Made by a program: the position numbers and the translations under genes. A stretch of DNA of 64,000 bases from Escherichia phage RudolfBernhard_Bas96, in sequence record PQ850623.1; one strand, given 5' to 3'. Positions 47 to 24,620 of this stretch are shown here, one piece after another; position 1 is the stretch's first letter; the number at the start of each line of letters is the position of its first letter. The notes under the pieces are model-generated. The model had not been told where the DNA came from. It made no database searches and worked only from the letters and a program-made list of their open reading frames with translations.

Positions 47-85
47 GAGTGATGTAGTACACATTGCTGGCACTATTGATAAGCA

Positions 86-110
86 CCCCTCTTCGGAGGG
101 GTTATTTTTA
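86..110 (+). terminator. Rho-independent terminator
   Basis: Perfect 6-bp stem CCCCTC/GAGGGG with TTCG tetraloop followed by TTATTTTTA. Confidence 0.55.
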
Positions 111-136
111 TCATTAGAAAAAGTATTTAATCTTTG

Positions 137-165
137 AAGCCCATTAGGAGAGGGGCTTTTTTGTT
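137..165 (+). terminator. Rho-independent terminator (second of tandem pair)
   Basis: Stem AAGCCC/GGGCTT with 10-nt loop followed by TTTTTT. Confidence 0.5.
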
Positions 166-234: not shown

Positions 235-567
235 ATGGGAAATGAACCAGATAACGTAACTCTAGCCAGACTCGAAGAGAGACTGAGAAACATTTTCGAA
301 AACCAAACTCGTGAAGCGAGGGAAAGGGAGAAAATGGAAGAGTCTATTAAAAAGCTAAGTGAGTCTATGGGCGACCTTAGTACCCGACTTAAACGGGTAG
401 AGGAAAGCATCACTAAGTCTGAACCTACCATCGAAGAGTTCATCACCATTAAACATAAAGTTGCTGGTGCTGGAATTTTTGGTAAGTGGGTATGGGCTGG
501 AGCAGGTGCAATTATTGGTGTATTGGCTGCTGCAAGACGGGAGATATTCGCATGGTTCGCAAGCTAA
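235..567 (+). CDS. Lysis-cassette membrane protein (holin/antiholin candidate)
   Basis: 110-aa ORF with ATG start; charged coiled-coil-like N-terminus and one C-terminal hydrophobic segment (GAGIFGKWVWAGAGAIIGVLAAA); sits directly upstream of the endolysin. Confidence 0.3.
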   Translation: MGNEPDNVTLARLEERLRNIFENQTREAREREKMEESIKKLSESMGDLSTRLKRVEESITKSEPTIEEFITIKHKVAGAGIFGKWVWAGAGAIIGVLAAARREIFAWFAS

Positions 568-812
568 AAAGAAAGATAGGGCTAGTTCCTAACTGGAAGA
601 AGTCCTGGAAGTGGGCATCTGTTCAGATTAGTGCATTTGGATTAATTCTATTTTCTGCTGTAGATATTATCCAACCAATGCTAACAGGACTACCACGTCA
701 CATCCTTGAAGATATTCCACATGGTTCCAGTATTACAATCGCACTGTTTGCTTTAAACATTGTAGGCAGACTAATACGATTCCATCCAAAGGAAGATTCT
801 CATGAAAGCTAA
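552..812 (+). CDS. Putative holin (two predicted TM segments)
   Basis: Internal ATG at 552 preceded by GGGAG RBS; basic N-terminus then two hydrophobic helices (ISAFGLILFSAV, ITIALFALNIVG); overlaps neighbours on both sides. Confidence 0.35.
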   Translation: MVRKLKRKIGLVPNWKKSWKWASVQISAFGLILFSAVDIIQPMLTGLPRHILEDIPHGSSITIALFALNIVGRLIRFHPKEDSHES

Positions 813-1437
813 ACAGAAACTTGCTGCAAAAGGTGGTGCAGTGGGAGGAGTTGTCGCTGCTATTCTGGGGGCAGTGTTCTATATGGAAGGAGGGTACGTA
901 AACAATCCTCACGACCCAGGTGGGGAAACTAATCATGGTATTACTCAATCAGTAGCCAAGTCTCATAAAGAAGTTCTGGCTACTGAGTATGGTTGGGATG
1001 GTTCCATGAAGGGTTTATCAAAAGAGATGGCTGCTGAGATATACATTGATGACTACGTACTTAAGCCTAACTTCGTAGCCTTCGCTGATATATCTCCTGC
1101 TGTAACACACAAACTGGTTGATGCTGGTGTTAACACTGGTGTAACCAGACCGGCTAAATGGTTGCAGCAATCCCTTAATGAAATGTCCCGTAATGGCAAA
1201 GACTACCCTAAAGTACAAGTTGATGGTAAAGTCGGTGCAGGTACTGTTAATGCATATAAAGCGTTACAGAAAAAACGAGGCAAAGTTGCAGCATGTCAGG
1301 TAATGATTAAGTTGCTTGATGCTAAACAACTGAACCACTACACCTCATTGAACATGCCAGACTTTACGTATGGTTGGGTAGCTAACCGAATCGGCAATGT
1401 GCCACTGGAGGCATGTAATGAAGATGCTAATCTCTAA
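802..1437 (+). CDS. Endolysin, GH108-family N-acetylmuramidase (N4 gp61-like) with SAR-like N-terminus
   Basis: 211 aa; EGGYVNNPHDPGGETNHGITQ matches the GH108 catalytic motif as I recall it; Gly/Ala-rich hydrophobic N-terminus GGAVGGVVAAILGAVF; RBS AAGGAAG. Confidence 0.75.
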   Translation: MKAKQKLAAKGGAVGGVVAAILGAVFYMEGGYVNNPHDPGGETNHGITQSVAKSHKEVLATEYGWDGSMKGLSKEMAAEIYIDDYVLKPNFVAFADISPAVTHKLVDAGVNTGVTRPAKWLQQSLNEMSRNGKDYPKVQVDGKVGAGTVNAYKALQKKRGKVAACQVMIKLLDAKQLNHYTSLNMPDFTYGWVANRIGNVPLEACNEDANL

Positions 1438-1918
1438 AGGTTGGCCTTATCTTCTGGTGGTGGTCCTCGGGGCCACCATTTACTTTTGGGGTAATTCCAA
1501 TGGACAGTCTACTGTTCAAAAGAAGTGGGATGCCCAAAAGGTTGAAGACCTGAAGGCAACACAAAAACTACAGGACAAATACAATGCTCTCCAAAGAAAC
1601 CATAGTTATGAAGTCGGGTTACTCACTTCCCGGTTGCAGACGGCTGAGAGTAATTACGCAAGCGAGCTTGCTCGCGTTAGCAGTGATTACGACAGCCGGA
1701 TGCAACAGTCTGAAAGACGAGCATCGGTATATAAACGTCAAGCCGAAGCCGGAACCCTTGAGTGCAGAAGTCTTGCAAGCCATGCAGCCAGACTCGACAA
1801 CAGTCTTGAAGAAGGCAGACGTTTGGTTGAAGAACTCCGGGCAACTGTTAGACTCCGTGACAACCAACTAATTGGGTTGGGTAAGCAAATTCAGGCTGAC
1901 CGTAAACTTTTTGAATAG
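1418..1918 (+). CDS. Rz-like inner-membrane spanin (i-spanin)
   Basis: ATG at 1418 with GGAGG RBS; N-terminal TM ([16 protein letters not shown]) followed by a long charged coiled-coil region; immediately after the endolysin. Confidence 0.5.
1584..1871 (+). CDS. Rz1-like outer-membrane lipoprotein spanin, embedded in Rz in the +1 frame
   Basis: ORF wholly inside the Rz gene in another frame; signal-peptide-like [12 protein letters not shown] ending in Cys (lipobox-like) then Pro-rich KPKPEPL; start may be ATG 1584 or 1608. Confidence 0.4.
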   Translation: MLSKETIVMKSGYSLPGCRRLRVITQASLLALAVITTAGCNSLKDEHRYINVKPKPEPLSAEVLQAMQPDSTTVLKKADVWLKNSGQLLDSVTTN

Positions 1919-1926
1919 GATTAACT

Positions 1927-4197
1927 ATGGAACACCAAGACACTTTTAAGCCTTTACCAGACCCGGCTCAATCAGAGAAGCTAACGGACTGGAAGAAGGA
2001 ACCAAGTATCCAATTACTGAAGGGTGATTTGGAATCAGCTAAACCTGCTCACGATGCAATTATGGCCCAGATTCGTGAGTGGAATGACCTAATGGAAGTC
2101 AAAGGTAAAGCTAAACCCCCAAAGGTTAAAGGTCGTTCACAAGTCCAACCTAGACTGGTTCGCCGTCAGGCAGAGTGGCGATATGCTCCATTGTCCGAGC
2201 CGTTCCTCTCATCTAATAAACTCTTTAAAGTAACTCCAGTTACTTTTGAAGATGAGTTAGCTGCACGTCAGAACGAATTAGTTCTTAACTACCAATTCCG
2301 TACACAGCTTAATAAAGTAAAACTAGTGGATGATTACGTACACAGTGTCGTAGATGACGGTACTGGTATTGCTCGTATTGGTTGGGAACGTAAGACTGTT
2401 AAGATTAAAACAGAAACACCAGTCTTCCAGTTGTATCCAATTGAGAATCAGGAACAGGCAGATGTTCTTCAACAGGCTTTACAGCTCCAGGCTGAGAATC
2501 CTCGTGAGTATGATGAAACTATGCCGGAAGATATTAAAGAAGCTGTTAACTACTTTAATGAAACTGGAGAAGCTACCTATGCAATCCAGACAGGGGTTAC
2601 TGAGGTAGAAGTAGAGAAGGCACTGGTTAACAGACCTACTGTTGAAATGCTTAACCCCAATAACGTAGTTATTGACCCAAGCTGTAATGGCGATTTGGAA
2701 AAGGCTCTGTACGCAGTTATCTCGTTTGAGACATGCAAAGCAGACCTCATGAAGAATAAAGACCGTTATCACAACTTAGATAAGATTGACTGGGAAAGTT
2801 CTAGTCCTATAACTGACCCAGACCATGAGAGTAAAACCCCTAGTGACTTCCAGTTTAAGGATGCACTTCGTAAGAAGGTTGTTGCTTACGAGTACTGGGG
2901 ATTTTACGACATCAATGATGATGGTTCTCTGGAACCAATTGTTGCTACCTGGATTGGTTCTACTCTTATCCGTATGGAGAAGAACCCATTTCCAGATGGT
3001 AAATTACCCTTAGTAGTTGTTCCTTACATGCCTCGTAAACGCGAACTCTTTGGTGAAGCTGACGCTGAACTGCTGGGGGATAACCAAGCAATTCTTGGTG
3101 CAACTATGCGTGGGATGATTGACCTGTTAGGTCGAAGTGCAAATGGACAACGTGGTTATCCTAAAGGGATGTTGGATACACTGAACCGACGTCGATATGA
3201 CGATGGGCAAGACTATGAATATAACCCAATGCAGGGTAATCCTAGTCAGGCCATTATGGAGCATAAGTTCCCTGAGTTACCCCAGTCGGCAATAGTAATG
3301 ACTCAGATGCAAAACCAGGAAGCTGAATCACTAACTGGTGTTAAAGCATTCTCAGGTGGTGTAACTGGTTCAGCTTATGGAGATGTGGCTGCTGGTATTC
3401 GTGGTGCACTTGATGCAGCATCCAAACGTGAGATGGCAATCCTTCGTCGATTAGCTAAGGGTATGGCAGACATTGGTACTAAGATTTGTGCAATGAATGC
3501 TGTGTTCTTATCTGAGAAAGAAGTAGTACGTATTACTAACGAGCAGTATGTAGAGATTAACCGTGAAGACCTTAAAGGTAACTTCGACATTGAGGTTGAT
3601 ATTAATACTGCTGAAATTGATAACCAGAAATCCCAGGACTTGAGCTTCATGGTTCAAACATTGGGTAATACGGTTGACCAAACTATTACGTTATCTCTTG
3701 TAGCTAAGATTGCAGAACTTAAACGTATGCCTGACCTGGCTCATGAGTTACGTACTTGGCAACCACAACCGGACCCTATGGAAGAACAGCTTAAGCAACT
3801 GGCAATTCAGAAAGCACAGCTTGAGAATGAAGAGTTACAAAGCAAGATTGCACTCAATATGGCTAAGGCTAAAGAGGCTGCTTCTGCTGGTGACCTTAAA
3901 GACCTGGATTATCTGGAACAGGAATCTGGTACTAAACATGCCCGTGATATGGAAAAACAAAAAGCACAATCTCAAGGAAACCAGAACCTTCAAATAACTA
4001 AGGCATTGACAACACCTATTAAAGAAGGGGAAACTACCCCCAACATATCTGCAGCTGTTGGATATAATACTTTGACTAACGGGAACTCTATACCAGAACG
4101 TGATTTAGCTGCTCAGCAAGACCCGGCTTATTCACTTAGTTCCCAATACTATGACCCTCGCCAAGACCCAGCATCGGCTCTTGGCATGAACCTGTAA
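1927..4197 (+). CDS. Portal protein (N4 gp59-like)
   Basis: 756-aa ORF with AGGA RBS; size and position (after lysis genes, before scaffold and capsid genes) match N4 late-gene order; no motif check possible by eye. Confidence 0.6.
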
Positions 4198-4210
4198 GGC
4201 AGACCTTCAC

Positions 4211-4555
4211 ATGAGTAAAGAATCAACAATCGCTGGACTGGAACATCGACTGGAAGCTGCTAAAGGTGCAGTTGCACATGCAGAAGATGTACGTAAACTT
4301 CTGGAGAACCCACTGTTCCGTAAAGTAATCCTTCGCCAGTTCTGTACTGAAGATTGTGCACGTTACGTGCAAGAGTCTGGTGACCCACTGCTTGAAGCAA
4401 ATAACCGTGCAGATGCATTGAACATGGCTCAAGCTGCTGGTCACTTACGTCGTTGGCTCGACCTCGCTATTCGTATGGGCGAAAACGAAGCTGATGTTAT
4501 TCTACAGGTAGAAGAAGAACTCGACGCAGTTCGTGCTGAACCTGAAGACGAATAA
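4211..4555 (+). CDS. Hypothetical late protein
   Basis: 114-aa ORF, ATG start, tightly packed between portal and scaffold-like gene. Confidence 0.5.
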   Translation: MSKESTIAGLEHRLEAAKGAVAHAEDVRKLLENPLFRKVILRQFCTEDCARYVQESGDPLLEANNRADALNMAQAAGHLRRWLDLAIRMGENEADVILQVEEELDAVRAEPEDE

Positions 4556-5811: not shown

Positions 5812-7014
5812 ATGTTAAATTATAACGCCCCAATTGACGGTCAGAAATCTAGCATTGATGGTGCTGGTTCCGACCAGATGAATACCTATTACTGGCTGAA
5901 GAAGGCTATTATTCAGTCTCGTAAAGACCAGTACTTCATGCCTCTGGCTAACACCATTAACATGCCGAAGAACTACGGTAAAACTGTTAAGGTGTATGAG
6001 TACGTTCCACTGCTTGACGATAAGAACATTAACGACCAGGGTATTGATGCTAATGGCGCTACCATCGTTAATGGTAACCTGTACGGTTCTTCCAGAGACG
6101 TTGGTAACATCACTTCTAAACTGCCTCTGCTGACAGAGAACGGTGGTCGTGTTAACCGTGTGGGCTTTACTCGTCTGTCTCGTGAAGGTTCCATCCATAA
6201 GTTCGGTTTCTTCTACGAATTTACTCAAGAGTCCTTGGACTTTGATTCTGATGATCAACTGAAAGAACACCTGTCTCGTGAACTGATGAACGGTGCTGTA
6301 CAGTTGACTGAAGCTGTTCTCCAGAAAGACCTGTTGGCTGCTGCTGGTACTGTATTGTATGCAGGTGCTGCTACCTCCGATGCCACCATCACTGGTGAAG
6401 GTTCTACCCCGTCCGTAGTTTCTTATAAGAACCTGATGCGTCTTGACCAGATTCTTACTGAGAACCGTACTCCGACTCAGACTACTATCATCACTGGTTC
6501 TAAACTTACCGATACCAAAGTACTTGGTGGTACTCGTGTAATGTACGTTGGTTCTGAACTGGTTCCAGAACTGAAAGCGATGAAAGACCTGTTCGGTAAC
6601 AAAGCATTCATCGAGGTTCAGCACTATGCTGATGCCGGTACTCTGATGAATGGTGAGATTGGTTGTATCGACAAGTTCCGTATTATTCAGGTTCCTGAGA
6701 TGCTGCATTGGGCAGGTGCTGGTGCTCAGGTTACTACTAACCCGGGTTATCGCTCTTCTATGGTTAGTGGGCAAGAACACTACGACGTATTCCCGATGCT
6801 GGTAGTTGGTGATGACTCCTTCTCTACCATTGGCTTCCAGACTGATGGTAAGTCTGTTAAGTTCTCCATCATGACTAAGATGCCTGGTCGAGAAACTGCT
6901 GACCGTAATGACCCGTATGGTGAGACTGGCTTTAGTTCCATCAAGTGGTACTACGGTATTCTGGTTAAACGTCCAGAACGTCTGGCTCTGATTAAGACTG
7001 TTGCTCCTCTGTAA
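5812..7014 (+). CDS. Major capsid protein (N4 gp56-like)
   Basis: 400 aa; strong RBS AGGAATAAG; strongly biased codon use (the antisense strand is stop-free for 472 codons); followed by a hairpin; position matches N4 order. Confidence 0.65.
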
Positions 7015-7032
7015 TAGTCCTAAATAAAACAA

Positions 7033-7058
7033 GGGGGACATAAGTCCCCCTCTTAATA
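7033..7058 (+). terminator. Hairpin terminator after capsid gene
   Basis: Perfect stem GGGGGAC/GTCCCCC with ATAA loop, then T/A-rich tail. Confidence 0.45.
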
Positions 7059-7081
7059 AAACTAGTTGAACCACAGGAAAT

Positions 7082-7723
7082 ATGAACATGAGCATTAACG
7101 ATAAACCGACCACTGACGTAGAACTGGACGTACAGGGCAACGAAGATACCGTTAACGATATTGCAATGCCTAGCGAACTTGAAGTTCTTAAGCAACGTGC
7201 AACGTTGATGAATATTAAGTTCTCTAACAACATCTCCGTTGAGAAGCTCCGTGAGAAGATTGAAGCTGCACAAGCAAAAGACGAACCAGAAGTAAAAGAA
7301 TCTGCTGTTAACCCTTTGGGTGAAAAACAGGAAGCTGGTGTTAAGAAAATGACCCTGGGTCAGAAGATTCGTGCAGAACAGACTCGACTGATTCGTGTAC
7401 GTATCCAGAACCTTGATCCCAAGAAGAAAGACCTGCCGGGTGAGATTATCACCGTAGCTAACGAATATATGGGTACTGTACGTAAGTTTGTTCCATTCGG
7501 TGAAGTCACCGACAATGGTTATCATATTCCGTACTGTATTTACGAGTTCCTTAAAGAGCGTAAGTTCATCAACATTACGACTCGTAAAGGTAAGAATGGC
7601 TTACCGGATATCCGTGCAACAGAAGCACGAGAGTTCTCCATTGAAGTATTGCCTCCGCTGACTGAAGCAGAATTGGCTCAACTGGCTCAAGCACAGATTG
7701 CTGCTGGTAGCCTGAACGATTAA
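7082..7723 (+). CDS. Virion-associated protein (N4 gp55-like position)
   Basis: 213 aa; RBS AGGAAA; synteny only. Confidence 0.45.
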   Translation: MNMSINDKPTTDVELDVQGNEDTVNDIAMPSELEVLKQRATLMNIKFSNNISVEKLREKIEAAQAKDEPEVKESAVNPLGEKQEAGVKKMTLGQKIRAEQTRLIRVRIQNLDPKKKDLPGEIITVANEYMGTVRKFVPFGEVTDNGYHIPYCIYEFLKERKFINITTRKGKNGLPDIRATEAREFSIEVLPPLTEAELAQLAQAQIAAGSLND

Positions 7724-13757: not shown

Positions 13758-13820
13758 TTAACTGGCTTACTGTAGAGTAAGTTACCTATATACGATATAA
13801 GTTTGAACAGGAAACATGCT

Positions 13821-16800
13821 ATGTCAACATTTGACCGTCTGGCAGGTTTCGCAGACAGCATCACTAATGCTAAGCAAGTCGATGTCTCTACTGCAACCTC
13901 TCAGAAGCAAGCTGCACAAGGGCAAAGCCCTTTCCAATTAACCCCAGAGAATGCTTACAATCTCCAGACCGGACGAGTAGGTAATCTTGGAATCGGTGCA
14001 TTCGAACCAGGTTCACTTCAGGCAGATTTCACTCAAGCCTCCCCATTAGAAATCATTAATAAATACGGTAATGAGCAAGGTTTACAGATTCTTAATAGCC
14101 GAGCTAATGCTGCTGATGTTGTACGTCAGGACTTATCTAAACAACGTACTAACGCAGAAGCATTTGGCGATACTCTTTCTGGTGTTGGTCTTGGTGTTGC
14201 TAATACCCTTGGGGGCATTGCTGCTCTTGGTACAGGTCTGGTCAATGATAATGCCGGGGCATCCATTGCTTCCGGGATGGATTGGTTGAATGAAGGTGTA
14301 CACAATCTACAGTCTGATGCACTGAATGCTACCCGTAAAGTTGTTCAGAATCAGAACCAGATTTCTGCTCAAAAGAACCAGAAACTCTATGAACAAGACA
14401 TCAAAAATGGGGAGAGCGATTTGGTTGCCTCCTTGTCTCGCATTGGTCGTGACGCTTTCGATTCTGTTGCTAACACACTTGATAATGGTATGGCTGTTTC
14501 CGACGGACTGAGTGAAGGTGTTGGTTCTCTCTTTACTGGTGGTCCACTTATCCGTGGTGTATCTGCACTAGGTAAAGTAATGGTAGGGGGTGATAAAGCT
14601 GTTAAGGGTATTACCTTAGCTGCTGGGTTAGGTTCACGTCCTGCACAGGTTGCATTGTCTGCCGGTCGTGTTGCTGCACCTGCTATCGCAATCGGTGGTA
14701 TGGAAGCAGGTGGTGCATACCAACAGACTGCTTCTGAAATCATGAAGATGTCCCATCAAGAACTGGCAAGTAAGTCTCCTGTTTACCAACAACATATTGC
14801 CGATGGTTTATCTCCTGATGAAGCACGACGTCAGGCTGCATCTGAAACAGGTATTATTGCTGCTGGCTTAACTGCTCCAGTTGCTGCTGCTACCGGTCCA
14901 CTGGTATCTCGCTTTGAACTTAACCCACTTAAGGTAGGTTCACTGGCAGGTGCTGGTTCTAATATGCTGCGTGAAACTGTAGAGGAAGGTATTCAATCCG
15001 GCTTTGGTCAGTTCGCACAGAATACTGCAATCAAAGGAAACGTTGATGCATCCCGTGACACCCTCAAAGGGGTTGGTGAGCAGGCAGGTCTTGGTGCACT
15101 TTATGGGTTCGGTAGTGCTGGGGTTGCTCAGGCTCCTGGTGCAACTGTTAAAGCAGTTGGTGCTTCTGCTGGTCCTGCTCTTCGTACTACCCTGGCTGGT
15201 GCTTCTCTGGTTGGTAAAACATTAGCAAAAGCTGCCTCTCCTCTTACTAACATCCTGGTTCAACGTGGTGAAGAAGTTGCTAAGCGTAATGAACAAGCAT
15301 CCCCTGTAGCTGATGCTACGGTTAATGCTGCTGCACAGGAAGCTGCTGCTCAGGCAGAACAAGCACAAGCAACTGTACAGGAAGCAGTAGATGCAATGGA
15401 TATCACTCCAGAAGAGAAAGCTGCTGCTACCCAATACGCTGCTGATTTAACTCAGGCAATGAAGTTTGACCCAGTAGAATTGGAACAAGCTAACCCAGTA
15501 ATCCGTGAAGCTGTTTCTGGCTCTACTAACCGTGTAGAAGCTATTCAGAAGATGGCTGACCTGGTTAATACTGCTGAAGACCCTAACGTTCAAATGGAAG
15601 CTGCAATCCAGATGTATGACAACATCATGTCTATGGATAGCTTCATTAACCGTGACCCAGGTGCACTGGCTAATCTGGAACAAGGTTCTCCTGCTGCTGC
15701 AATCGTAGACCAGTTCTCTGGCTTGATGGCTAACGTACAGAATACCCCTAAAGTACTTCGCGCATTCCGTGCCATCCATTCCATGATTCAGGAACAGGCT
15801 GAAGCAGGTAAATTGAAAGCTACTGAAGAAGCCAATCAAGCCCAAGCAAACAATATTGCTATGGCTGCTGATGTGTCCCCAGAAGTGCTAGATGCAGATT
15901 CAGTGAACATGGTTCTGAAACATGCAAGTGAAGGTAAGATTACATTGGGGAATCGTCAACGTGCTGCCCTGCAATCTGCTGCTGCCTTGTTACAGGGTGC
16001 ACGAGAGTTCGACGCTAAAGCAGAAGAACTAGGCTTACGTCCTCAAGACATTGTTAGTAAACAGATTAAAACCGACGAGTCTCGTTCTAATGAAGGACAG
16101 TACTCTGCGTTGCAACATGCGAAACGCATTCGTTCTGCGTATAACTCTGGTAACTTCGATTTGGCCTCCGCTTATCTGAGCGACTTTATGAAGTTCGCCC
16201 AGCACATGCAGAATAAGGTCGGAGCGTTGAATGAGCATCTGATTTCGGGGAATGCGGATAAGAATAAGTCTGTTCATTATCAGGCTCTCTCGCCTTCCCG
16301 TGAATGGGTACGTAGTCGTACTGGCCTCGGTGTCAATCCGTATGATACCAAATCTGTTAAGTTTGCCCAGCAAGTAGGACTGGAGGCCAAAACCGTAGCT
16401 GATATTGCTAATGCACTTGCTACGGCTTACCCGGAGCTTAATGTTTCTCATGTGAAGGTTACCCCATTGGATTCACGTCTGGACAAGCCTGCTGCCCAGG
16501 TAGTTAAAGAGTTCCGTCAAGGTGGTCTTGATGCCACTCAGTCTCAACAGACTAATGAACCAGTGAATCAGGTTGATGAAACTCCTGCACCAGTGCAAGA
16601 GGACACTACTACTGTACAGCCTAAAGCTAAACCAGTGGTAGAAAATAAGACTGCTCCTACTAAGGAGACTAGTCCAAAAACAGAAGAAGTCTCTACTACT
16701 AAGCCTGAAACAGTAGATGCTACCCTTACTAATGAGGATACCATCGAGCAACCTACTGAATCGGAAAGAGATGCTTATGTGAAAGAGAATACTATTTCAC

Positions 16801-19800
16801 AAGATACTCTTAATAAGTATGGTGACCGTAGAGAGAGTCCATGGCTCTTTGCTGATGGTACTGTTGTTGGTTCTAACGGTGACCATATCAGTCTGTCTGA
16901 TGTATTTGGTCATGATGGTTATCGTGATATGTCCTTGGATACTGGTGCTATTCGCTCTACTTTCTATAAAGGTAGTGAGCAACCATTTGTATCTCTGCAA
17001 TTGTTTGATAATCAGAAGTTGACTGCTGAACAATTCAATACTGTTCAATCTTTCGTTGAAGCCAATAATGCACAGATTCTGGTTGGTGTAGATACCTCTG
17101 GTCGTAACACTAACAACGTGGAGAAAGATGAGGTATCACTGGCTCAGCTAAAAGCAGGTTATACTGTTGGTGGTAAACCTCTGTCTGAAATGGAAACAGT
17201 GTTCCCTGTCTATAACAATGAAAAGACACCGAACCAGTTCCTGAAAGCATTCTCTCTGCCGGAAGAACCTAAGTCTCGTACCATTGGTTCCGAATCCCCT
17301 TTAGCTGATATTAAGCAAGCACTCTCTTCTGCTGCTCGCTTTGAAGCATTTACTCAAAAAGAAAATAACGCTCTCACAGGTGATGTGTTAAAACGCTATC
17401 AAGACTTGATGGACTTTGGGGAAACTCTGAAGACTACTTTGTCTGAACGACTGGCTAAGTTCCTTGCTAACAAAAATGTTGGTAAACGTTTTGCAGAAGG
17501 TACTGAAGCTAACCGTTGGGTAGGTGGTAAGTTACTTAACATCGTAGAGAAAGATGGAGATACCTTTAAGTTTAATGATCAGTTGTTAGAGACTGCTGTA
17601 CTTGCTGGTCTGCAATGGCGACTAACTGCTACACAGAATGCTGCCATTAAAGATATGAAAGACGTAGCTGCTATTACTGGTGTAGAAGCATCTCTGTTAC
17701 CAGAAGGCATTCTGGCTGAGTTCGAGAATGCCCAGACTTTAGTAGAAGCTACTAGCTCACTGGCTCAGAAGATTGAATCCTACTGGGGTTTGAATCGTAA
17801 CCCTAATGCACCACTGGGTTATACCAAGGGTATTCCAGTGGCAATGGCTACAGAGATTTTGTCTTCCCTCATTGAGATGGGTGCAGTTACTGAGACTATG
17901 CTGGATGTGTCTGAGATTGACCCAGACTCTAATAAGACTGTTGGTCTGTACACTATTAATAAGTTGGCTGATAAAGACCCTATTAATAATTTCCCTACAG
18001 CAATTGAAGAAGCTGTTTTGGTAAACCCGGAAGAGAAAATGTACTTTGGTGATGACATTCCTTCCGTGGCTCAAACTCAGTTACGTAACCCTGCTGTTAA
18101 GAACACCCCTGAACAGAAAGCTGCACTGAAAGCCGAACAGGCTACCGAGTTCCGTGTACACATGCCGATGGTTAACTTCTATGAAGCTTTAGGCCGTGAC
18201 AACATTCTGGAACTAATGGGTGCTGGTACTCTTAATCCTGATTTGCTGAATAAGAACAATGCTAAATCACTGGAAGGTAAGAACTTATCAGTATCTATGG
18301 CATATGATTCCTTGTTTGGTTTAATTAATCAGCTAAAAGAACAAGAGAATGGTTTGGATACCCCTATTCACTATGGCTATAACATGACCCGAGTAGGTCG
18401 TATGCAGATGCTTGGTAAGAACAACCCACAATCCAGTAAGCTGGTTCGTGAAGCAATTCTGCCAACCTTCTCTACTATTGACTTGAGTAATGAAAACAGC
18501 CAAGCGTTCTCTGACTTCCAGTTAGGACTGGCTCAGGCATTAGGCATCAAGGTACACAAAATGTCCCGTGAAGCTATGGCCGAAGAGTTGACTAAAGCTC
18601 TGGAAGGTAAACTGAAACCTGCTGTTGATATGATGGTTGAGTTCGATAAGTCTGGTTACTTACCTACAGATGCAGTAGATATTCTGAAGACCTCTCTGGG
18701 TGATAACAAATCCTTCGTAGCTCTCATGGCTCTGATGGAATATGCCCGTTACCTGAACAGTGATGACCGTGCCAACTTTACTACTCCCCTGTACGTTGAA
18801 GCTGATGGTGTAACCAACGGCCCAATCAACGCAATGGTATTAATGACTGGTGGTAAGTTCACTTCGGACTGGATTAAGAATACTGCCAAAGGTGGTTTGT
18901 TCTTCGGTCGTGCTGGTAAAACGATGAACGAACATTGTTCTATTGACGATAATGTTGACCTGTATGAAGCATCTACTAATGGTCTGCAATTTTATCTAAA
19001 TGAGTTACGTACTACTTACCGTAACAATATTCCGGTTATGAGCCAGATGAATCATCTCCAGAAGTTAATGGATTTGTTCATTAAAGATTTTAACCTGAAT
19101 GAAGACGGTACTCTGGACCTGAAACGTGGCATCGCTAAAAACCCCCTGACCATTACCATCTACGGTTCTGGTGCTCGTGGTATTGCTGGCAAGATGGTTA
19201 GTGCAATCACTGACACCATCTACGAACGCCTCAGTGACGTTCTACAAGCACGGGCTGCTGACCCTAGCATTTCCCCAGCTATGGCAATGTTTGGTAAGGA
19301 GGCTGCGTCTGAGGCAGATGCTCAGGCTATGCTGAATACCTTCCTTACTTCTATGGAAGCACTGACCGGTAAGATTCCAGCTAAGCGTAAAGGTAAGTTA
19401 TTTATTAAGGAAGTAGATGGTGCTCTGACTGGTGAGCTAGATCCCCAGGAGTTTACTGTATCTGGTGATGCCCTTAAGAACTTACAAGAGAATATGTTGC
19501 ACTTCTTCGTTGAACCAATGAGACAAAGTATCCGGTTCACCGTTGGTGAAGGTCTGATGCACTCCACTGAGAACTTACAGAAGGCTACCCAGATTCAGTC
19601 TCTGGTATTGCAGGATATGTTCCAACAAGCAGTACAAGCTAAGCTGGCAGAAAAAGAAAAAGACCCATCCTGGAAGAAGGGTGATTTCTTAACACAGAAA
19701 GAACTGAATGAAATTCAGAAATCATTGTCTCCACTGGCTCCAATGATTGAGACTGGTTCACAGACTTTCTACATTGCAGGAAGTGAGAATACTGATGTTG

Positions 19801-22800
19801 CTAACCAAGTACTGGCTACCAACTTAGATGACCGTATGCGTGTGCCAATGAGCATCTATGCTCCTTCACAGGCAGGCGTTGCAGGTATTCCATTTATGAC
19901 CATTGGTACTGGTGATGGCATGATGATGCAGACCCTTTCTACTATGAAAGGTGCTCCGAAGAATACCCTGAAAATCTTTGATGGTATGAACATTGGTATC
20001 AATGACATCACTGATGCAAGCCGTAAAGCTAATGAGGCTGTATATACTTCCTGGCAGGGCAACCCTATTAAGAACGTGTATGACTCCTTCTCTAAGTTCA
20101 TGAAGAACGTAGACTTTAATAAGTTGTCAGATAAGACAATTGATGACATTGCCCGTTCTGCTTTAGATTTTGAACAGCTTTCTCATATCAGTCGTGTTGA
20201 GGGAGACAGGCAGTATAAGATTGATATGATTAAGAATTCCGGTGTTAACCTTATTGAACGTAACTTGCGTAACATTGCTCTGGGTGTAGATATTCGTCAC
20301 AAAGTAATGAACCAAGTACAGACCACTGTTGACCAGATGGCTGCTGTGGGTGCTCCTTATGTGAACAACGGTAAAATCTCTCTGGAAGGTCTGACTGTAG
20401 ACCAGCAAGTAGCTAAGCTGAACGAACTGTTCGATGCTGAATTAAACAAGCGTCGTGATGCAGTACGTGCTGCTAAAGCAGAACCAGTGAAAGAAGTACC
20501 AGTTATGGAACAAGTTGGTCGTGTACTTAAGTCTGGTGTACGTCTGTTATCTAATACTGCTATCACTAAGCTGGGTAAAGAGATGACCCCTGAACAACAA
20601 GCAGTATTGAAAGAAGTACAGAAATCCCTTGCTGCTAAAGACTACAAGGTTGTTTACGGTACTCCTGCTCAACTGGATGCTTACGCTATTGAGAAGAATA
20701 TTACTCGTCCTGCACCGGAAGATATTGAAGCTGCTGAAGCTGGTAATGCGTATGGCTGGACTAACTTTGATGATAAGACCATCTACTTAGTTACCCCTTC
20801 TTTAGAGACTCTGGTTCACGAACTGGTACATGCTTCTACTTTTGAATCTGTACTGGCTCACTATGAGGGTACTCCTAATGAAGCAGTCCAGAATATTGAA
20901 GACCTGATGAACCAGTTCCGTACTCTGGATGTTAAGAACGAATCCCCGGCAGTACGTGAAGCATATGCTGATGCACTCAATACCATTAATGGTCACTTGT
21001 CTAATGGCTTCATTGAACCAGCAATGGCTAAAGCTGCTGCACTGAATGAGTACATGGCATGGGGCTTAACCAACCGTGAACTGATTGGTAAGCAGAAGAA
21101 GACTACTGCACTGAAGACTATGGTTCAGTCTGTATATGAAGCAATTAAGCGTCTGGTATTTGGGCGTAAGAAAGCACCTGCTAATGCAGATGATATGTTC
21201 TCTGGCTTACTGTTTAACTCTTCAGTAGTTATGCGTGGACAGGCTCCTACGGCTGCTGTATCCAAGGACACTACCTTGTTTCATAACAAGGCATACGGTG
21301 ACAATACCCGTCTGGAAGAGTTGGGACAGACTTTTGATAAACTGATTACTAACTACATTGGTTCTGAACCAGTACAGCAAGTAATTCGTAAAGGTAAGTT
21401 CTCTGATGCAGTAGTGAATGCAACTAAAGTAACTCGTGATGTTCAGGCTCACGGCTTTACCATGAATATGCAGGAACAGCGACTGTTTACTAATATCGTT
21501 GCTGCTTTGGCTACTGAAGCTGCTATTAGCCCGGCTGCTCTTTCTCGTGCACAGGAATATTACGCACACGTCACCAAGAACCTGACCGTTGAAGCATTCA
21601 TGGCTGACCCGGATAGTACTAACCCTGCTGACCGTTATTATGCTCAGCAGAAGTTCGATACTATCATGGGGGCTAACAACATTGAGTTTGATGCACAGGG
21701 TCATTCTTCCTTACTGCCTACCTTTGTTGGTCTGGCAATGGTAAGTGAAGAGGTGCGTAACGTACTGGCTAACATTCCTGTTATGAAAGCAGATAAGAAA
21801 TCTGGTAATACCATTGATGCAATGCTGACTAACATCGGTACTGCTGCAATGTCTAGTCTGAATGCTCGTGTAGCTGGTGATACCAAAGCTACCAACGTAC
21901 AGGAAGGTATGGATGCACTGGCTCAGACAATCATGCAGACTAGCTTAAATGCACAGTCATTCTATGATTCCGTTGCTACACCTAGTGGTAATGCTATTGA
22001 CCGTGCTAATCAGTATCTGGTGGATTCTATTGATGTACTGTCTACTCGTGCTTTAGAAAGTGCCCGTGAAGTTGCAGCTAATACCAAGAATCCATTGGTT
22101 AAGGGTGCTGCTCATGCTGCACAACTGGTAGCTGCCATTGCTACAGAGAAGAATGGTGCAATCGTAGCCGAAGGTGTTATGGCTGCAATGAACCAGGGCA
22201 AGGTATGGCAACCTTTCCACGACTTGGTTAATGACTTAACCGGTCGTACTAAGAGTAATGCTTCTGTGTATGATTTGATTAAAGCAGTTCGTGCACAGGT
22301 ACAAGCAGACCGTCAGCAGTTCCGTGAACATCTGCCTACCACTATTGCATCTAAGTTCAGCCGTAAGCTGACTAATGATGAGTGGAAAGCAATGTACACT
22401 GGTATGGGTAAAACTGACTTAGCTGTTCTGCGTGACACCATGTCTCTGGCTGAAATCCGTGACCTACTGTCTGACCAAAAGATCGTTGACCGTGAAGTGA
22501 ATAAGCTGGAAGCAGATTTGCAGAAGCAAGCTGGTCGTAACTGGCCTCTTATTAGCCGTAAATCTAAGCAACTGGCTCAGTACATGATTAACGGTACAGT
22601 CGGCAATAACCTGCTGCGTAATGCTACTGCAATCTCTCGTATGCTGGGTGAACGTCAGGCTGCTCGCTCTACTGTAGATGTAGCTCAACTGGATAAACTG
22701 ATTACCCTGTATGCACTGGAAGCAATGAATAAGTCTGACCGTGAGATGTTATCTTCACTGGCTCAGGCAGAAGTTGATGGAATGGACTTTGCTACTTCTT

Positions 22801-24620
22801 ACCTGGTTGGTCAGCGTAAAGATGAAATGGCTAAAGCCAAGTCTGATATGCGTGCAACCCTGAACCAGTACAAAGGGCATATCCCTAGTGAGACTAAACA
22901 GAGTGTTAATCTGATTGTTGCTGAAGATAGTCAGTTTGCTGATTTGATTGAGAAGTCCTATGTACGTCTGGGTACTTATCAAGGTAGCTCTGCTAATCGT
23001 GGTCCGGCACGTAGTTACTACTTTGCACCAGTACAGGCACAGGCTCCTTTCTCACAGGGTATCCTACAGAACGTTCGTAATACTGCTGGTGGTGTAGACC
23101 TCGGCACAGGCTTTACGATGGGTTCGATGGTAGCTGGTCGTATTACTGACAAGCCTTCCGTAGACCGTATTACTAAAGCACTGGCTCGTGGTGAACGTGG
23201 TAATGAACCACTGCTGCCTGTGTATGATGACAAAGGTAATGTAGTTGCTTATGAGCAATCTATTGACCCCAACATGCTGAAGCACATTGAAGGTGAAAAC
23301 CACCTTGCCCGTGCAATTGGTGTATGGCGTGGTCGTCAGGTGGAAGAAGCTAAGGCTCAGCGTTTCAACGATATGCTGATTGAGAACCTGCATAGCATGT
23401 ATGAGAATGACATTAAGATGTCTGCCTCTAACAAGTCCCAGTATGTGAACCTTCTTGGTTCTAAACTGGATCCAGTAACTGCTGATGCTCTTAAGCTAAT
23501 GAACAGTGAAACCCGTCAGAAAGCAGAAAGTCTGTTTGGTGAGGGTGAACTGTGGGTACGTCGTGACATGCTGAATGATGCACTTGGTTATCGTGCAGCT
23601 TCTGTTGGTGATGCCTGGTCTGGTAATTCTCGTTGGTCCCCGGAAACTCTGGATACTTTCAAGAAAGCTATGCTGGGTGTATTTGGCAACCGTGCTTATA
23701 AGTACACAATGGGTGGAGAGAACCTGGTTCAAAACTTAGTTAAAGAAGCCAAGACTCTGATTGTAGTTAAGTCAGTAGTCGTACCTGCTGTTAACTTCTT
23801 GGCTAACCTTTACCAGATGGTTGCTCGTGGTGTACCGGTTAAGAACATTGCTAAGAGCATTCCACAGAAGACTGCTGAGATTAACCAGTACCTTAAATCT
23901 CGTCTGCGTCAGGTAGATGCAGAAGCAGAATTACGTGCAGCTACTAACCCGAACCAGATTCGTAAACTTAAGGCTGAGATTCAGTCCATTACTGATAGTC
24001 ATAAGCGTATGAGTATCTGGCCTCTGTTAGAAGCCGGTGAGTTCTCTTCTATTGCAGATGCTGGCATCGGTCGTGATGACATCCTGATTACTGAGGGCAA
24101 ACTTCATGAATACATGGAAAAACTGGCTGATAAGTTACCTAAGTCTGTACGTACTGCCGGACGCTATGCACTTATCACTAAAGATACTGCTCTGTTCCAG
24201 GGTATCCAGAAGACAGTTGAGTACTCTGACTTTATCGCTAAAGCAATCATCTATGATGAACTGACTCAGCGTAAAGGTAAGACTCGTGAAGAAGCACTTG
24301 GACGTGTAACGGAAGAGTTTGTTAACTATGACCGTCTGCCGGGTCGCTTCCGTGGGTATATGGAAAGTGTTGGTTTAATGTGGTTCTACAACTTTAAGAT
24401 TCGTTCAGCTAAGGTTGCAGTGTCCATGATTCGTAATAACCCGGTACACGCAGCAATGGCTATGTTGGCTCCAACCCCTACCATGTTTGGTAACGTTGGT
24501 CTGCCTATTCAAGACAACATCTTTAGCATTGCTGCTAAAGGTAGTCTGGATTACTCATGGGGCTTTGGTCAGGGGCTTCGTGCACACAACCTGAACCCTT
24601 GGATGAACCTGGTAAACTAA
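13821..24620 (+). CDS. Virion-encapsidated RNA polymerase (vRNAP, N4 gp50-like)
   Basis: Single 3599-aa ORF (track begins at TTG 13803; ATG 13821 follows AGGAAA RBS); central region has a T7-like motif B (KRGIAKNPLTITIYGSGARG); size is diagnostic of N4-like phages. Confidence 0.85.
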   Translation: MSTFDRLAGFADSITNAKQVDVSTATSQKQAAQGQSPFQLTPENAYNLQTGRVGNLGIGAFEPGSLQADFTQASPLEIINKYGNEQGLQILNSRANAADVVRQDLSKQRTNAEAFGDTLSGVGLGVANTLGGIAALGTGLVNDNAGASIASGMDWLNEGVHNLQSDALNATRKVVQNQNQISAQKNQKLYEQDIKNGESDLVASLSRIGRDAFDSVANTLDNGMAVSDGLSEGVGSLFTGGPLIRGVSALGKVMVGGDKAVKGITLAAGLGSRPAQVALSAGRVAAPAIAIGGMEAGGAYQQTASEIMKMSHQELASKSPVYQQHIADGLSPDEARRQAASETGIIAAGLTAPVAAATGPLVSRFELNPLKVGSLAGAGSNMLRETVEEGIQSGFGQFAQNTAIKGNVDASRDTLKGVGEQAGLGALYGFGSAGVAQAPGATVKAVGASAGPALRTTLAGASLVGKTLAKAASPLTNILVQRGEEVAKRNEQASPVADATVNAAAQEAAAQAEQAQATVQEAVDAMDITPEEKAAATQYAADLTQAMKFDPVELEQANPVIREAVSGSTNRVEAIQKMADLVNTAEDPNVQMEAAIQMYDNIMSMDSFINRDPGALANLEQGSPAAAIVDQFSGLMANVQNTPKVLRAFRAIHSMIQEQAEAGKLKATEEANQAQANNIAMAADVSPEVLDADSVNMVLKHASEGKITLGNRQRAALQSAAALLQGAREFDAKAEELGLRPQDIVSKQIKTDESRSNEGQYSALQHAKRIRSAYNSGNFDLASAYLSDFMKFAQHMQNKVGALNEHLISGNADKNKSVHYQALSPSREWVRSRTGLGVNPYDTKSVKFAQQVGLEAKTVADIANALATAYPELNVSHVKVTPLDSRLDKPAAQVVKEFRQGGLDATQSQQTNEPVNQVDETPAPVQEDTTTVQPKAKPVVENKTAPTKETSPKTEEVSTTKPETVDATLTNEDTIEQPTESERDAYVKENTISQDTLNKYGDRRESPWLFADGTVVGSNGDHISLSDVFGHDGYRDMSLDTGAIRSTFYKGSEQPFVSLQLFDNQKLTAEQFNTVQSFVEANNAQILVGVDTSGRNTNNVEKDEVSLAQLKAGYTVGGKPLSEMETVFPVYNNEKTPNQFLKAFSLPEEPKSRTIGSESPLADIKQALSSAARFEAFTQKENNALTGDVLKRYQDLMDFGETLKTTLSERLAKFLANKNVGKRFAEGTEANRWVGGKLLNIVEKDGDTFKFNDQLLETAVLAGLQWRLTATQNAAIKDMKDVAAITGVEASLLPEGILAEFENAQTLVEATSSLAQKIESYWGLNRNPNAPLGYTKGIPVAMATEILSSLIEMGAVTETMLDVSEIDPDSNKTVGLYTINKLADKDPINNFPTAIEEAVLVNPEEKMYFGDDIPSVAQTQLRNPAVKNTPEQKAALKAEQATEFRVHMPMVNFYEALGRDNILELMGAGTLNPDLLNKNNAKSLEGKNLSVSMAYDSLFGLINQLKEQENGLDTPIHYGYNMTRVGRMQMLGKNNPQSSKLVREAILPTFSTIDLSNENSQAFSDFQLGLAQALGIKVHKMSREAMAEELTKALEGKLKPAVDMMVEFDKSGYLPTDAVDILKTSLGDNKSFVALMALMEYARYLNSDDRANFTTPLYVEADGVTNGPINAMVLMTGGKFTSDWIKNTAKGGLFFGRAGKTMNEHCSIDDNVDLYEASTNGLQFYLNELRTTYRNNIPVMSQMNHLQKLMDLFIKDFNLNEDGTLDLKRGIAKNPLTITIYGSGARGIAGKMVSAITDTIYERLSDVLQARAADPSISPAMAMFGKEAASEADAQAMLNTFLTSMEALTGKIPAKRKGKLFIKEVDGALTGELDPQEFTVSGDALKNLQENMLHFFVEPMRQSIRFTVGEGLMHSTENLQKATQIQSLVLQDMFQQAVQAKLAEKEKDPSWKKGDFLTQKELNEIQKSLSPLAPMIETGSQTFYIAGSENTDVANQVLATNLDDRMRVPMSIYAPSQAGVAGIPFMTIGTGDGMMMQTLSTMKGAPKNTLKIFDGMNIGINDITDASRKANEAVYTSWQGNPIKNVYDSFSKFMKNVDFNKLSDKTIDDIARSALDFEQLSHISRVEGDRQYKIDMIKNSGVNLIERNLRNIALGVDIRHKVMNQVQTTVDQMAAVGAPYVNNGKISLEGLTVDQQVAKLNELFDAELNKRRDAVRAAKAEPVKEVPVMEQVGRVLKSGVRLLSNTAITKLGKEMTPEQQAVLKEVQKSLAAKDYKVVYGTPAQLDAYAIEKNITRPAPEDIEAAEAGNAYGWTNFDDKTIYLVTPSLETLVHELVHASTFESVLAHYEGTPNEAVQNIEDLMNQFRTLDVKNESPAVREAYADALNTINGHLSNGFIEPAMAKAAALNEYMAWGLTNRELIGKQKKTTALKTMVQSVYEAIKRLVFGRKKAPANADDMFSGLLFNSSVVMRGQAPTAAVSKDTTLFHNKAYGDNTRLEELGQTFDKLITNYIGSEPVQQVIRKGKFSDAVVNATKVTRDVQAHGFTMNMQEQRLFTNIVAALATEAAISPAALSRAQEYYAHVTKNLTVEAFMADPDSTNPADRYYAQQKFDTIMGANNIEFDAQGHSSLLPTFVGLAMVSEEVRNVLANIPVMKADKKSGNTIDAMLTNIGTAAMSSLNARVAGDTKATNVQEGMDALAQTIMQTSLNAQSFYDSVATPSGNAIDRANQYLVDSIDVLSTRALESAREVAANTKNPLVKGAAHAAQLVAAIATEKNGAIVAEGVMAAMNQGKVWQPFHDLVNDLTGRTKSNASVYDLIKAVRAQVQADRQQFREHLPTTIASKFSRKLTNDEWKAMYTGMGKTDLAVLRDTMSLAEIRDLLSDQKIVDREVNKLEADLQKQAGRNWPLISRKSKQLAQYMINGTVGNNLLRNATAISRMLGERQAARSTVDVAQLDKLITLYALEAMNKSDREMLSSLAQAEVDGMDFATSYLVGQRKDEMAKAKSDMRATLNQYKGHIPSETKQSVNLIVAEDSQFADLIEKSYVRLGTYQGSSANRGPARSYYFAPVQAQAPFSQGILQNVRNTAGGVDLGTGFTMGSMVAGRITDKPSVDRITKALARGERGNEPLLPVYDDKGNVVAYEQSIDPNMLKHIEGENHLARAIGVWRGRQVEEAKAQRFNDMLIENLHSMYENDIKMSASNKSQYVNLLGSKLDPVTADALKLMNSETRQKAESLFGEGELWVRRDMLNDALGYRAASVGDAWSGNSRWSPETLDTFKKAMLGVFGNRAYKYTMGGENLVQNLVKEAKTLIVVKSVVVPAVNFLANLYQMVARGVPVKNIAKSIPQKTAEINQYLKSRLRQVDAEAELRAATNPNQIRKLKAEIQSITDSHKRMSIWPLLEAGEFSSIADAGIGRDDILITEGKLHEYMEKLADKLPKSVRTAGRYALITKDTALFQGIQKTVEYSDFIAKAIIYDELTQRKGKTREEALGRVTEEFVNYDRLPGRFRGYMESVGLMWFYNFKIRSAKVAVSMIRNNPVHAAMAMLAPTPTMFGNVGLPIQDNIFSIAAKGSLDYSWGFGQGLRAHNLNPWMNLVN

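Follow-up and report, generated by a model that had tools for sequence, protein, structure and literature searches.

The stretch of DNA analyzed here (64,000 nucleotides of phage RudolfBernhard_Bas96; "the window", with positions counted from 1 at its first letter) very probably carries at 235-1918 on the + strand the late-expressed lysis cassette of a G7C-type N4-like podophage. The cassette would be orthologous, gene for gene, to gp63-gp62-gp61-gp60/gp60a of phage N4, and would act through a pinholin, a signal-anchor-release (SAR) endolysin and a spanin complex. The proteins of the window share the structural features that lie behind the conclusions reached for N4, including five residues of gp63, and a pinholin/SAR endolysin/spanin pathway is thus the most likely one. 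A sequence-only reading had proposed a compact lysis cassette of four overlapping genes in this interval. The open reading frames (ORFs) do lie there, on the + strand, and match those of G7C and N4 one for one. The overlaps are as proposed but the number is not; there are five genes, four in overlapping series and a fifth embedded in the last of them:

235..567, + strand: gp63-like pinholin-type protein, 110 amino acids (aa)
552..812, + strand: gp62-like holin, 86 aa; the ORF is also open from GTG486 and ATG492
802..1437, + strand: gp61-like GH108 endolysin, 211 aa
1418 or 1424..1918, + strand: gp60-like i-spanin (Rz equivalent), 166 or 164 aa
1584 or 1608..1871, + strand: gp60'/gp60a-like o-spanin (Rz1 equivalent), 95 or 87 aa, embedded

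The affiliation of the cassette is evident from the DNA. Positions 86-2400 are 96.3% identical to Escherichia phage vB_EcoP_G7C (NC_015933), an N4-like member of the Schitoviridae, genus Gamaleyavirus, and 57 phage records span at least 80% of the cassette-region query in the DNA search. G7C has the same five genes in the same order and with the same overlaps. Its RefSeq record labels this stretch as gp63 (hypothetical), gp62 (holin), gp61 (endolysin), gp60 (Rz-like spanin), gp60' (embedded Rz/Rz1-like spanin) and gp59 (portal). In the window the gp63 and gp62 genes overlap by 16 nt, gp62 and gp61 by 11 nt, and gp61 and gp60 by 20 nt if the i-spanin starts at ATG1418 or by 14 nt if it starts at ATG1424. 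Good Shine-Dalgarno sequences precede ATG552 (GGGAG), ATG802 (AAGGAAG) and ATG1418 (GGAGG). All five products are straightforward members of N4 families, with the following amino acid identities to N4-like phages:

gp63: G7C 96%, N4 61%, KP8 68%, inbricus 49%, JWDelta 43%, Paxi 38%
gp62: G7C 98%, N4 54%, KP8 53%, inbricus 19%, JWDelta 30%, Paxi 35%
gp61: G7C 97%, N4 67%, KP8 79%, inbricus 60%, JWDelta 58%, Paxi 54%
gp60: G7C 97%, N4 55%, KP8 57%, inbricus 55%, JWDelta 48%, Paxi 41%
mature o-spanin: G7C 100%, N4 80%, KP8 80%, inbricus 84%, JWDelta 73%, Paxi 61%

The gp62 figure for inbricus is low because the annotated inbricus coding sequence ends at 44 aa by a stop codon. None of the five proteins scored above a curated NCBIfam cut-off; the endolysin reached 59.6 bits against the 240 set for "holin-associated N-acetylmuramidase". 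The gene structures, family memberships, enzyme fold, SAR composition, lipoprotein signal and dual coding described below were all read from this DNA and its products.

The product of 802..1437 is a GH108 endolysin, as the sequence-only reading had it, and Pfam, sequence matches in the PDB and the modeled fold agree on this. Glyco_hydro_108 (PF05838) covers residues 24-113 with 72.3 bits (cut-off 21.2) and PG_binding_3 residues 117-196 with 33.7 bits (cut-off 24.6); the protein also falls in PHROG 315 (endolysin). Among proteins of known structure its sequence matches Sen1395 (6v3z, 2e-27) and TtsA (6v40, 3e-20). The AlphaFold2 model, built from 62 homologues, has a predicted local distance difference test score (pLDDT) of 93.7 and a predicted template modeling score (pTM) of 0.89. 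It includes a confident helix at residues 12-29 that is continuous with the fold. The top PDB matches of the model in Foldseek were 6v40 TtsA, 6v3z Sen1395, 7dnp SagA (Brucella) and 2ikb NMB1012, all with probability 1.00; template modeling (TM) scores to GH108 structures were 0.63-0.81, and the two-domain fold is common to all. TtsA and Sen1395 are Salmonella typhoid-toxin secretion muramidases. They share with SagA, NMB1012 and the window endolysin the EGGY...GG.T catalytic region, but these bacterial enzymes have no hydrophobic N-terminal helix, unlike the endolysin of the window.

Residues E29, G31, D38, G40 and T43 are invariant in the 62 homologues. The catalytic residues of TtsA are E14, D19 and T28 (PMC6996933), and these align with E29, N34 and T43 of the window endolysin. 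Asn34, at the position of TtsA Asp19, is also Asn in Sen1395 and in the enzymatically characterized N4 gp61; an Asp here is evidently not required across the family. The window enzyme is predicted to be an N-acetylmuramidase from its 67% identity to N4 gp61, which is cited as the founding GH108 N-acetylmuramidase (Stojkovic & Rothman-Denes 2007, as cited in 10.1101/2025.11.12.688109).

The N-terminus of the endolysin consists of MKAKQKLAAK followed by GGAVGGVVAAILGAVFYM. Four lysines (K2, K4, K6 and K10) precede a segment of 18 uncharged residues, 50% of which are Gly or Ala, and this segment leads directly into the catalytic motif:

832-885, + strand: SAR segment G11-M28, by composition and run length
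886-888, + strand: codon of the catalytic Glu29, in the EGGY motif, by alignment to TtsA E14

The arrangement is a property of the family. In a survey of 120 database homologues, the pattern EGG[YWFL] located the catalytic motif in 101. All but one of these (100/101) show 15-23 consecutive uncharged residues ahead of the motif (median length 18, median Gly+Ala content 47%), and in 97 of the 100 this run abuts the catalytic Glu with zero spacer, so that a signal-peptidase cleavage region would not fit in between. One homologue, from Stenotrophomonas phage Philippe, is already named "SAR endolysin N-acetylmuramidase" in GenBank. A crude summed hydrophobicity scale did not tell the SAR helix apart from other helices, because the segments it was summed over included charged residues. 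The SAR-like, Gly/Ala-rich N-terminus that the sequence-only reading described is thus present in the window and kept across the homologues, and N4 gp61 behaves as a SAR endolysin. By analogy with N4 gp61, the enzyme would be tethered to the membrane, inactive while tethered, and released upon depolarization or spontaneously.

The two genes ahead of the endolysin had been called a holin-like pair, and both fall into the corresponding N4 families. The gp63-like protein matches PHROG 5211 over its full length (6e-49). By hydropathy, it has a hydrophilic coiled-coil region of 75 residues followed by a single C-terminal membrane helix. The helix, W85-A100, is 56% Gly+Ala, and the sequence VAGAGIFGK stands just before it. 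The juxtamembrane segment carries S62, T65, I70, T71 and I72, the same residues as at all five positions of the N4 "LIN domain" (LIN, lysis inhibition). The only Pfam matches are sub-threshold and of coiled-coil type. An assignment as an XhlA-type haemolysin was rejected; the match to PHROG 1193 "hemolysin" is weak (3e-4) and Pfam XhlA gave no match at E<=0.1. The S21 68 pinholin of phage 21 is defined by two helices, the first of which is a SAR helix, but the gp63-like protein has a single C-terminal segment. It would count as a pinholin by function alone, as N4 gp63 has been shown to. Public homologues of gp63 are labeled "hypothetical", "tail length tape-measure protein" or "RIIA/RIIB lysis inhibitor".

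The product of 552..812 matches Pfam DUF7940 (54.2 bits, cut-off 27; 2e-14) and PHROG 1356 "holin" (3e-30). It has two membrane helices at about W21-V37 and I55-G72, corresponding to uncharged runs at 21-37 and 55-72, and its termini are basic. It is predicted to be a hole-forming holin of the N4 gp62/DUF7940 type. A 22-codon in-frame extension of the gene (486-551, from GTG486 or ATG492) is open in six of seven N4-like phages and absent in Paxi, and in N4 the extension has been proposed as a possible dual-start, antiholin-like form of gp62 (10.1101/2025.11.12.688109). Its conservation is no evidence of use, because its stop and start codons arise from the conserved gp63 codons for GKWVW read in the other frame. 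The long isoform was set aside and ATG552, with GGGAG 8 nt upstream, was retained.

The i-spanin gene encodes a protein that matches PHROG 6197 "Rz-like spanin" end to end (3e-77), which bears out the Rz identity given to it in the sequence-only reading. Its N-terminus is MKMLISK followed by a 27-residue uncharged run, G8-Q34, with a membrane helix at about G8-W24. Beyond the helix lie ~140 residues of periplasmic domain with a single Cys. ATG1418 lies 6 nt downstream of GGAGG and corresponds in the alignment to the start of the N4 protein; G7C is annotated from the equivalent of ATG1424. Homology to lambda Rz/Rz1 was not apparent: the only Pfam match of the i-spanin is a sub-threshold one to DUF2514 (E 0.019; 15.5 bits, cut-off 26), and no other Rz family was matched.

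An Rz1-like lipoprotein ORF, fully embedded in the +1 frame with a signal peptide ending in AGC, had also been proposed, and it is there. The ORF 1608-1871 lies wholly inside 1418-1918 and is read in the +1 frame of the i-spanin gene (start mod 3 of 0 as opposed to 2). Its signal peptide, 31 residues from ATG1608 or 39 from ATG1584, ends in ...ITTAGC including the Cys, and both starts give the same mature product of 56 aa with Asn at +2. An Asp at +2, the inner-membrane retention signal, is thus lacking.

1701-1703, + strand: codon of Cys32, the predicted lipid-modified residue of the o-spanin, by the lipoprotein rule

The criterion was a PROSITE-style lipoprotein rule applied to candidate starts of at least 50 aa in six frames of the whole window. 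Only four of 1212 candidate starts (0.3%) satisfied it, ATG1608 among them. Relatives have IVGC, LTAC, LIGC or LAGC at the homologous site. The description of the mature protein as Pro-rich holds only modestly; four of its 56 residues (7%) are Pro, concentrated in KPKPEP. The 87-aa product has no match in Pfam, PHROG or NCBIfam.

The embedded frame is conserved in all 28 related loci, consisting of six of six annotated N4-like phages and 22 of 22 IMG/VR loci. Scoring of the Cys and the mature length relied on an anchoring motif, which was located in 19 of 22 IMG/VR loci; the remaining three also have the nested ORF. In every locus with the motif, in phages of genera from Escherichia to Stenotrophomonas, the mature o-spanin is 55-56 aa long. 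The mature o-spanin is also better conserved (80% to N4) than the i-spanin that encloses it (55%). The third codon positions of the i-spanin are the second codon positions of the o-spanin frame, and their mean pairwise identity in 12 diverse phages was as follows:

part shared with the mature o-spanin: 0.74
5' part outside the overlap: 0.35
part shared with the signal peptide: 0.43
3' tail: 0.39

Of the evidence for dual coding this wobble-position constraint is the clearest, and it indicates that selection acts on both frames. The start of the o-spanin is less sharply defined. ATG1608 has a poor Shine-Dalgarno sequence and AGGA stands before ATG1584. In G7C, gp60' is annotated (G7C 3914-4285) from the equivalent of window 1500. 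That long start was rejected for the window because an in-frame TGA closes the extension, a stop also present in about half of the close relatives. The real start must therefore lie downstream, at 1584 or 1608, and G7C gp60' has probably been annotated from too early a start. Public records of N4, KP8, inbricus and JWDelta lack the embedded o-spanin.

The functional data come from N4 and are described in a 2025 preprint from the Ramsey laboratory (10.1101/2025.11.12.688109). The cloned gp60-63 genes suffice to lyse cells rapidly. gp61 complements endolysin defects with either a large-hole holin or the S21 pinholin; expressed alone it causes cells to round up slowly, and single acidic substitutions in its SAR segment lead to rapid lysis (10.1101/2025.11.12.688109). 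gp63 is lethal, C-terminally anchored, and complements the S21 pinholin but not lambda S; its lysis-timing mutations cluster at S62, T65, I70, T71 and I72 (10.1101/2025.11.12.688109). gp62 is a non-essential, late-triggering large-hole holin, which becomes lethal after addition of carbonyl cyanide m-chlorophenyl hydrazone (CCCP) and can release the soluble lambda endolysin R late (10.1101/2025.11.12.688109). gp60/gp60a fully complement lambda Rz/Rz1 amber mutants, and the mature o-spanin has 56 residues (10.1101/2025.11.12.688109).

The following sequence of events would apply to the window cassette, where export, tethering, hole size, timing and outer-membrane disruption are carried over from N4 by homology. 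The endolysin would be exported by Sec and kept in the inner membrane by its weakly hydrophobic Gly/Ala-rich N-terminal helix. With Glu29 directly at the end of the SAR helix, it would be inactive while tethered. The gp63-like C-tail-anchored protein would meanwhile accumulate in the membrane and at the trigger time form small holes that collapse the membrane potential. Depolarization would then release the SAR helix all around the cell and activate the muramidase. The gp62-like two-helix holin would be a second, later-triggering hole former, serving as a back-up or modulator. Once the peptidoglycan is degraded, the spanin complex, made of the inner-membrane i-spanin and the 56-residue outer-membrane o-spanin lipoprotein, would be freed to act. 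It would complete lysis by disrupting or fusing the outer membrane.

Other explanations of the individual proteins were weighed. The N-terminus of the endolysin might be an ordinary cleavable Sec signal peptide and the enzyme a secreted, soluble one. Lys44 of Oenococcus phage fOg44 is a precedent, and a basic n-region followed by a hydrophobic h-region is a layout common to signal peptides. However, the uncharged stretch runs straight into the invariant Glu29, so a c-region has no place to fit. At -1/-3 before Glu29 stand M/F here and V/F in N4, whereas signal peptidase I needs small residues at these positions, and the model makes residues 12-29 a confident helix continuous with the fold. In addition, N4 gp61 is membrane-associated and the premature lysis caused by single acidic substitutions in its segment is a SAR phenotype (10.1101/2025.11.12.688109). 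A soluble, secreted endolysin is therefore very improbable, and a SAR endolysin is the better description. It is harder still to credit that the embedded ORF is a chance ORF or a mis-annotation, with the i-spanin-like protein acting alone or the outer membrane being disrupted in some other way. The lack of a family match for the 87-aa product, the poor Shine-Dalgarno sequence of ATG1608 and the non-canonical -3 position of the lipobox would fit such a view. Yet a chance ORF would not be expected to persist in every related locus with a Cys and a mature length of 55-56 aa, to be better conserved than the frame that encloses it, to constrain third positions only where the mature protein overlaps, and to be among the few starts that satisfy the lipoprotein rule. 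gp60 and gp60a of N4, moreover, complement lambda spanin mutants (10.1101/2025.11.12.688109).

It is also unlikely, though less far-fetched, that the two small membrane proteins play other parts here than in N4, such as the gp62-like protein being the principal holin and the gp63-like protein a regulator, antiholin or endolysin activator rather than a pinholin. G7C, JWAlpha and JWDelta were reported to lack lysis inhibition, unlike N4, and an earlier thesis is cited as having called gp63 an "activator of gp61" (10.1101/2025.11.12.688109). The identities to N4 are only 54% for gp62 and 61% for gp63. The gp63-like protein has no resemblance to the two-helix S21 pinholin, and its relatives in the public records are "hypothetical" or mislabeled "tape measure". 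Met17 of N4 gp63, a proposed alternative start, is absent from the window. Against an exchange of roles, the C-terminal 53 residues of gp63, which make up the juxtamembrane segment and the helix, are ~85% identical to N4 by manual count, and all the positions of the N4 timing mutations are identical in the window. The co-occurrence of gp62 and gp63 in 60 of 65 N4-like genomes suggests a conserved division of labor (10.1101/2025.11.12.688109).

A number of points weigh against the proposed reading of the cassette. The functional roles, here and in G7C, are all transferred from N4 across 54-80% protein identity, and the regulation by gp63 and gp62 may differ, since G7C reportedly lacks lysis inhibition. 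Met17 of N4 gp63 is replaced by Leu. Alternative starts are left by the sequence for the o-spanin (1584/1608), the i-spanin (1418/1424) and gp62 (552/486/492). No sigma-70 consensus promoter was found on the + strand in 1-2400, including the 70 nt between a candidate hairpin at 136-165 and ATG235; N4 late promoters are atypical, however, and a sigma-70 scan is uninformative for them. The lipobox, T-A-G-C, has Thr at -3 and so lies outside the strict consensus [LVI][ASTVI][GAS]C (Kongari et al., PMC6139136).

The motif S..T....ITI of N4 gp63 is also carried by gp63 of G7C-type phages and JWDelta. As it is common to phages reported to be LIN-negative, we infer that the juxtamembrane segment is not sufficient for lysis inhibition. 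It is conceivable, although we lean against it, that two things hold together: tethering by the zero-spacer SAR helix would itself bury or misfold the active site, and the LIN motif of gp63 would be a general pinholin timing element, the lysis-inhibition signal of N4 being encoded elsewhere. P1 Lyz is silenced by disulfide caging and R21 by domain repositioning. If the joint reading were true, the window endolysin would represent a third, distinct way of silencing a SAR endolysin, and the phage would be a natural LIN-negative comparator for mapping the N4 lysis-inhibition signal.

The cassette can be compared with the well-known lysis systems. Relative to N4 it is orthologous gene for gene, with an embedded o-spanin of 56 mature residues, a SAR helix abutting EGGY and the same LIN motif. 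The differences lie in the 54-80% protein identity, and in N4 gp61, which is initiated at GTG and whose basic N-terminus is shorter. In the N4 o-spanin the lipobox is the canonical I-V-G-C, and an internal Met stands near the h-region; the window o-spanin has T-A-G-C, and its start must be further upstream than in N4. N4 shows lysis inhibition; G7C-type phages reportedly do not.

Phage 21 (S21 68/R21) and P1 (Lyz) follow the same logic, a tethered endolysin freed by small-hole depolarization, and R21 and P1 Lyz have a Gly/Ala-rich N-terminal helix after basic residues, as the window endolysin does. But the phage 21 and P1 enzymes are GH24, T4-lysozyme-like, whereas the window enzyme is GH108 with the catalytic Glu immediately after the SAR helix. 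S21 has two helices; the pinholin-type protein of the window has one C-terminal helix and a cytoplasmic coiled coil, and no sequence relationship links the window cassette to these systems. The embedded arrangement is that of lambda Rz/Rz1, with the whole o-spanin gene nested in the +1 frame of the i-spanin gene; as in lambda, too, the i-spanin is of type II with an N-terminal helix and the o-spanin a small lipoprotein lacking Asp at +2. Unlike the lambda proteins, the spanins of the window form a separate sequence family, PHROG 6197. Lambda Rz1 has ~40 aa, ~25% Pro and a Cys that makes an intermolecular disulfide, whereas the mature o-spanin of the window, with 56 aa and 7% Pro, has no Cys besides the lipidated one.

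The cassette, then, is already known. It is annotated in G7C and many relatives, its N4 orthologues have been dissected experimentally, and nothing in the cassette departs from the G7C annotation and the N4 demonstration. Its practical value lies in correct annotation, as many records call gp63 "hypothetical" or "tape measure" and omit the embedded o-spanin. It also offers a clear case of dual coding in which the wobble-position signature can be measured. As G7C-type phages share the pinholin motif with N4 but reportedly not its lysis inhibition, the cassette could in addition serve as a comparator for the cause of that difference.

The flanks of the cassette contain the following features:

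85..110, + strand: intrinsic-terminator-like hairpin ACCCCTC-TTCG-GAGGGGT followed by a T run, from the terminator scan and also present in the RNA fold of 60-234
136..165, + strand: second, weaker candidate hairpin AAGCCC...GGGCTT followed by TTTTTGTTG, identified by inspection of the letters (weak evidence)
1927..4197, + strand: portal gene, 756 aa, with a SU10_portal match of 8e-151

The hairpin at 85..110 probably ends an upstream transcription unit ahead of the cassette. The one at 136-165 has a loop longer than 8 nt, outside the limit of the scan, and is not formed in the minimum-free-energy fold of 60-234. The portal gene begins 8 nt after the end of the cassette, and the terminator scan of 1-2400 found no terminator between them. 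Together with the overlaps of 16, 11 and 20 nt, this suggests that the cassette is co-transcribed with the structural genes and that its genes are translationally coupled.

A terminator-like site does occur within the cassette. At 1456-1490 on the + strand, in the part of the i-spanin gene that encodes the membrane helix, an 11-bp GC-rich hairpin (GGTGGTGGTCC...GGCCACCATT) is followed by TACTTTTGGG. Terminator-like sites in 1-2400 number six, as opposed to 1.9 expected from shuffles. The hairpin could be due to chance or could be an internal attenuator between the endolysin and the spanin and portal genes. Upstream of the cassette, positions 1-85 of the window have no match to G7C. They include a run of 16 A at 11-26 and a small hairpin at 31-46, terminator-like when read on the - strand. 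The sequence ahead of the cassette, which in G7C holds tail-fiber genes, appears to be the variable part among the related phages.

Elsewhere in the window, a 472-aa ORF at 5815..7233 on the - strand is exactly codon-antisense to the major capsid gene at 5812..7014. It was rejected as a gene and regarded as a codon-bias by-product of the highly expressed capsid gene. The capsid gene has one TTA (codon 2), no CTA and no TCA among its 61 Leu/Ser codons (P ~7e-7 at genome-average usage), and it avoids all other rare codons too. The antisense frame is broken in relatives, with two stops in OLB145 (species Enquatrovirus N4), two in Pylas, one in PEV2 and 16 in Vibrio phage D498, and the 472-aa product has no PHROG match. 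A search of the full 64 kb window for tRNA genes gave none. At 13803-24620 on the + strand lies an ORF of 3605 aa, started by TTG, that presumably encodes the N4-type virion RNA polymerase.

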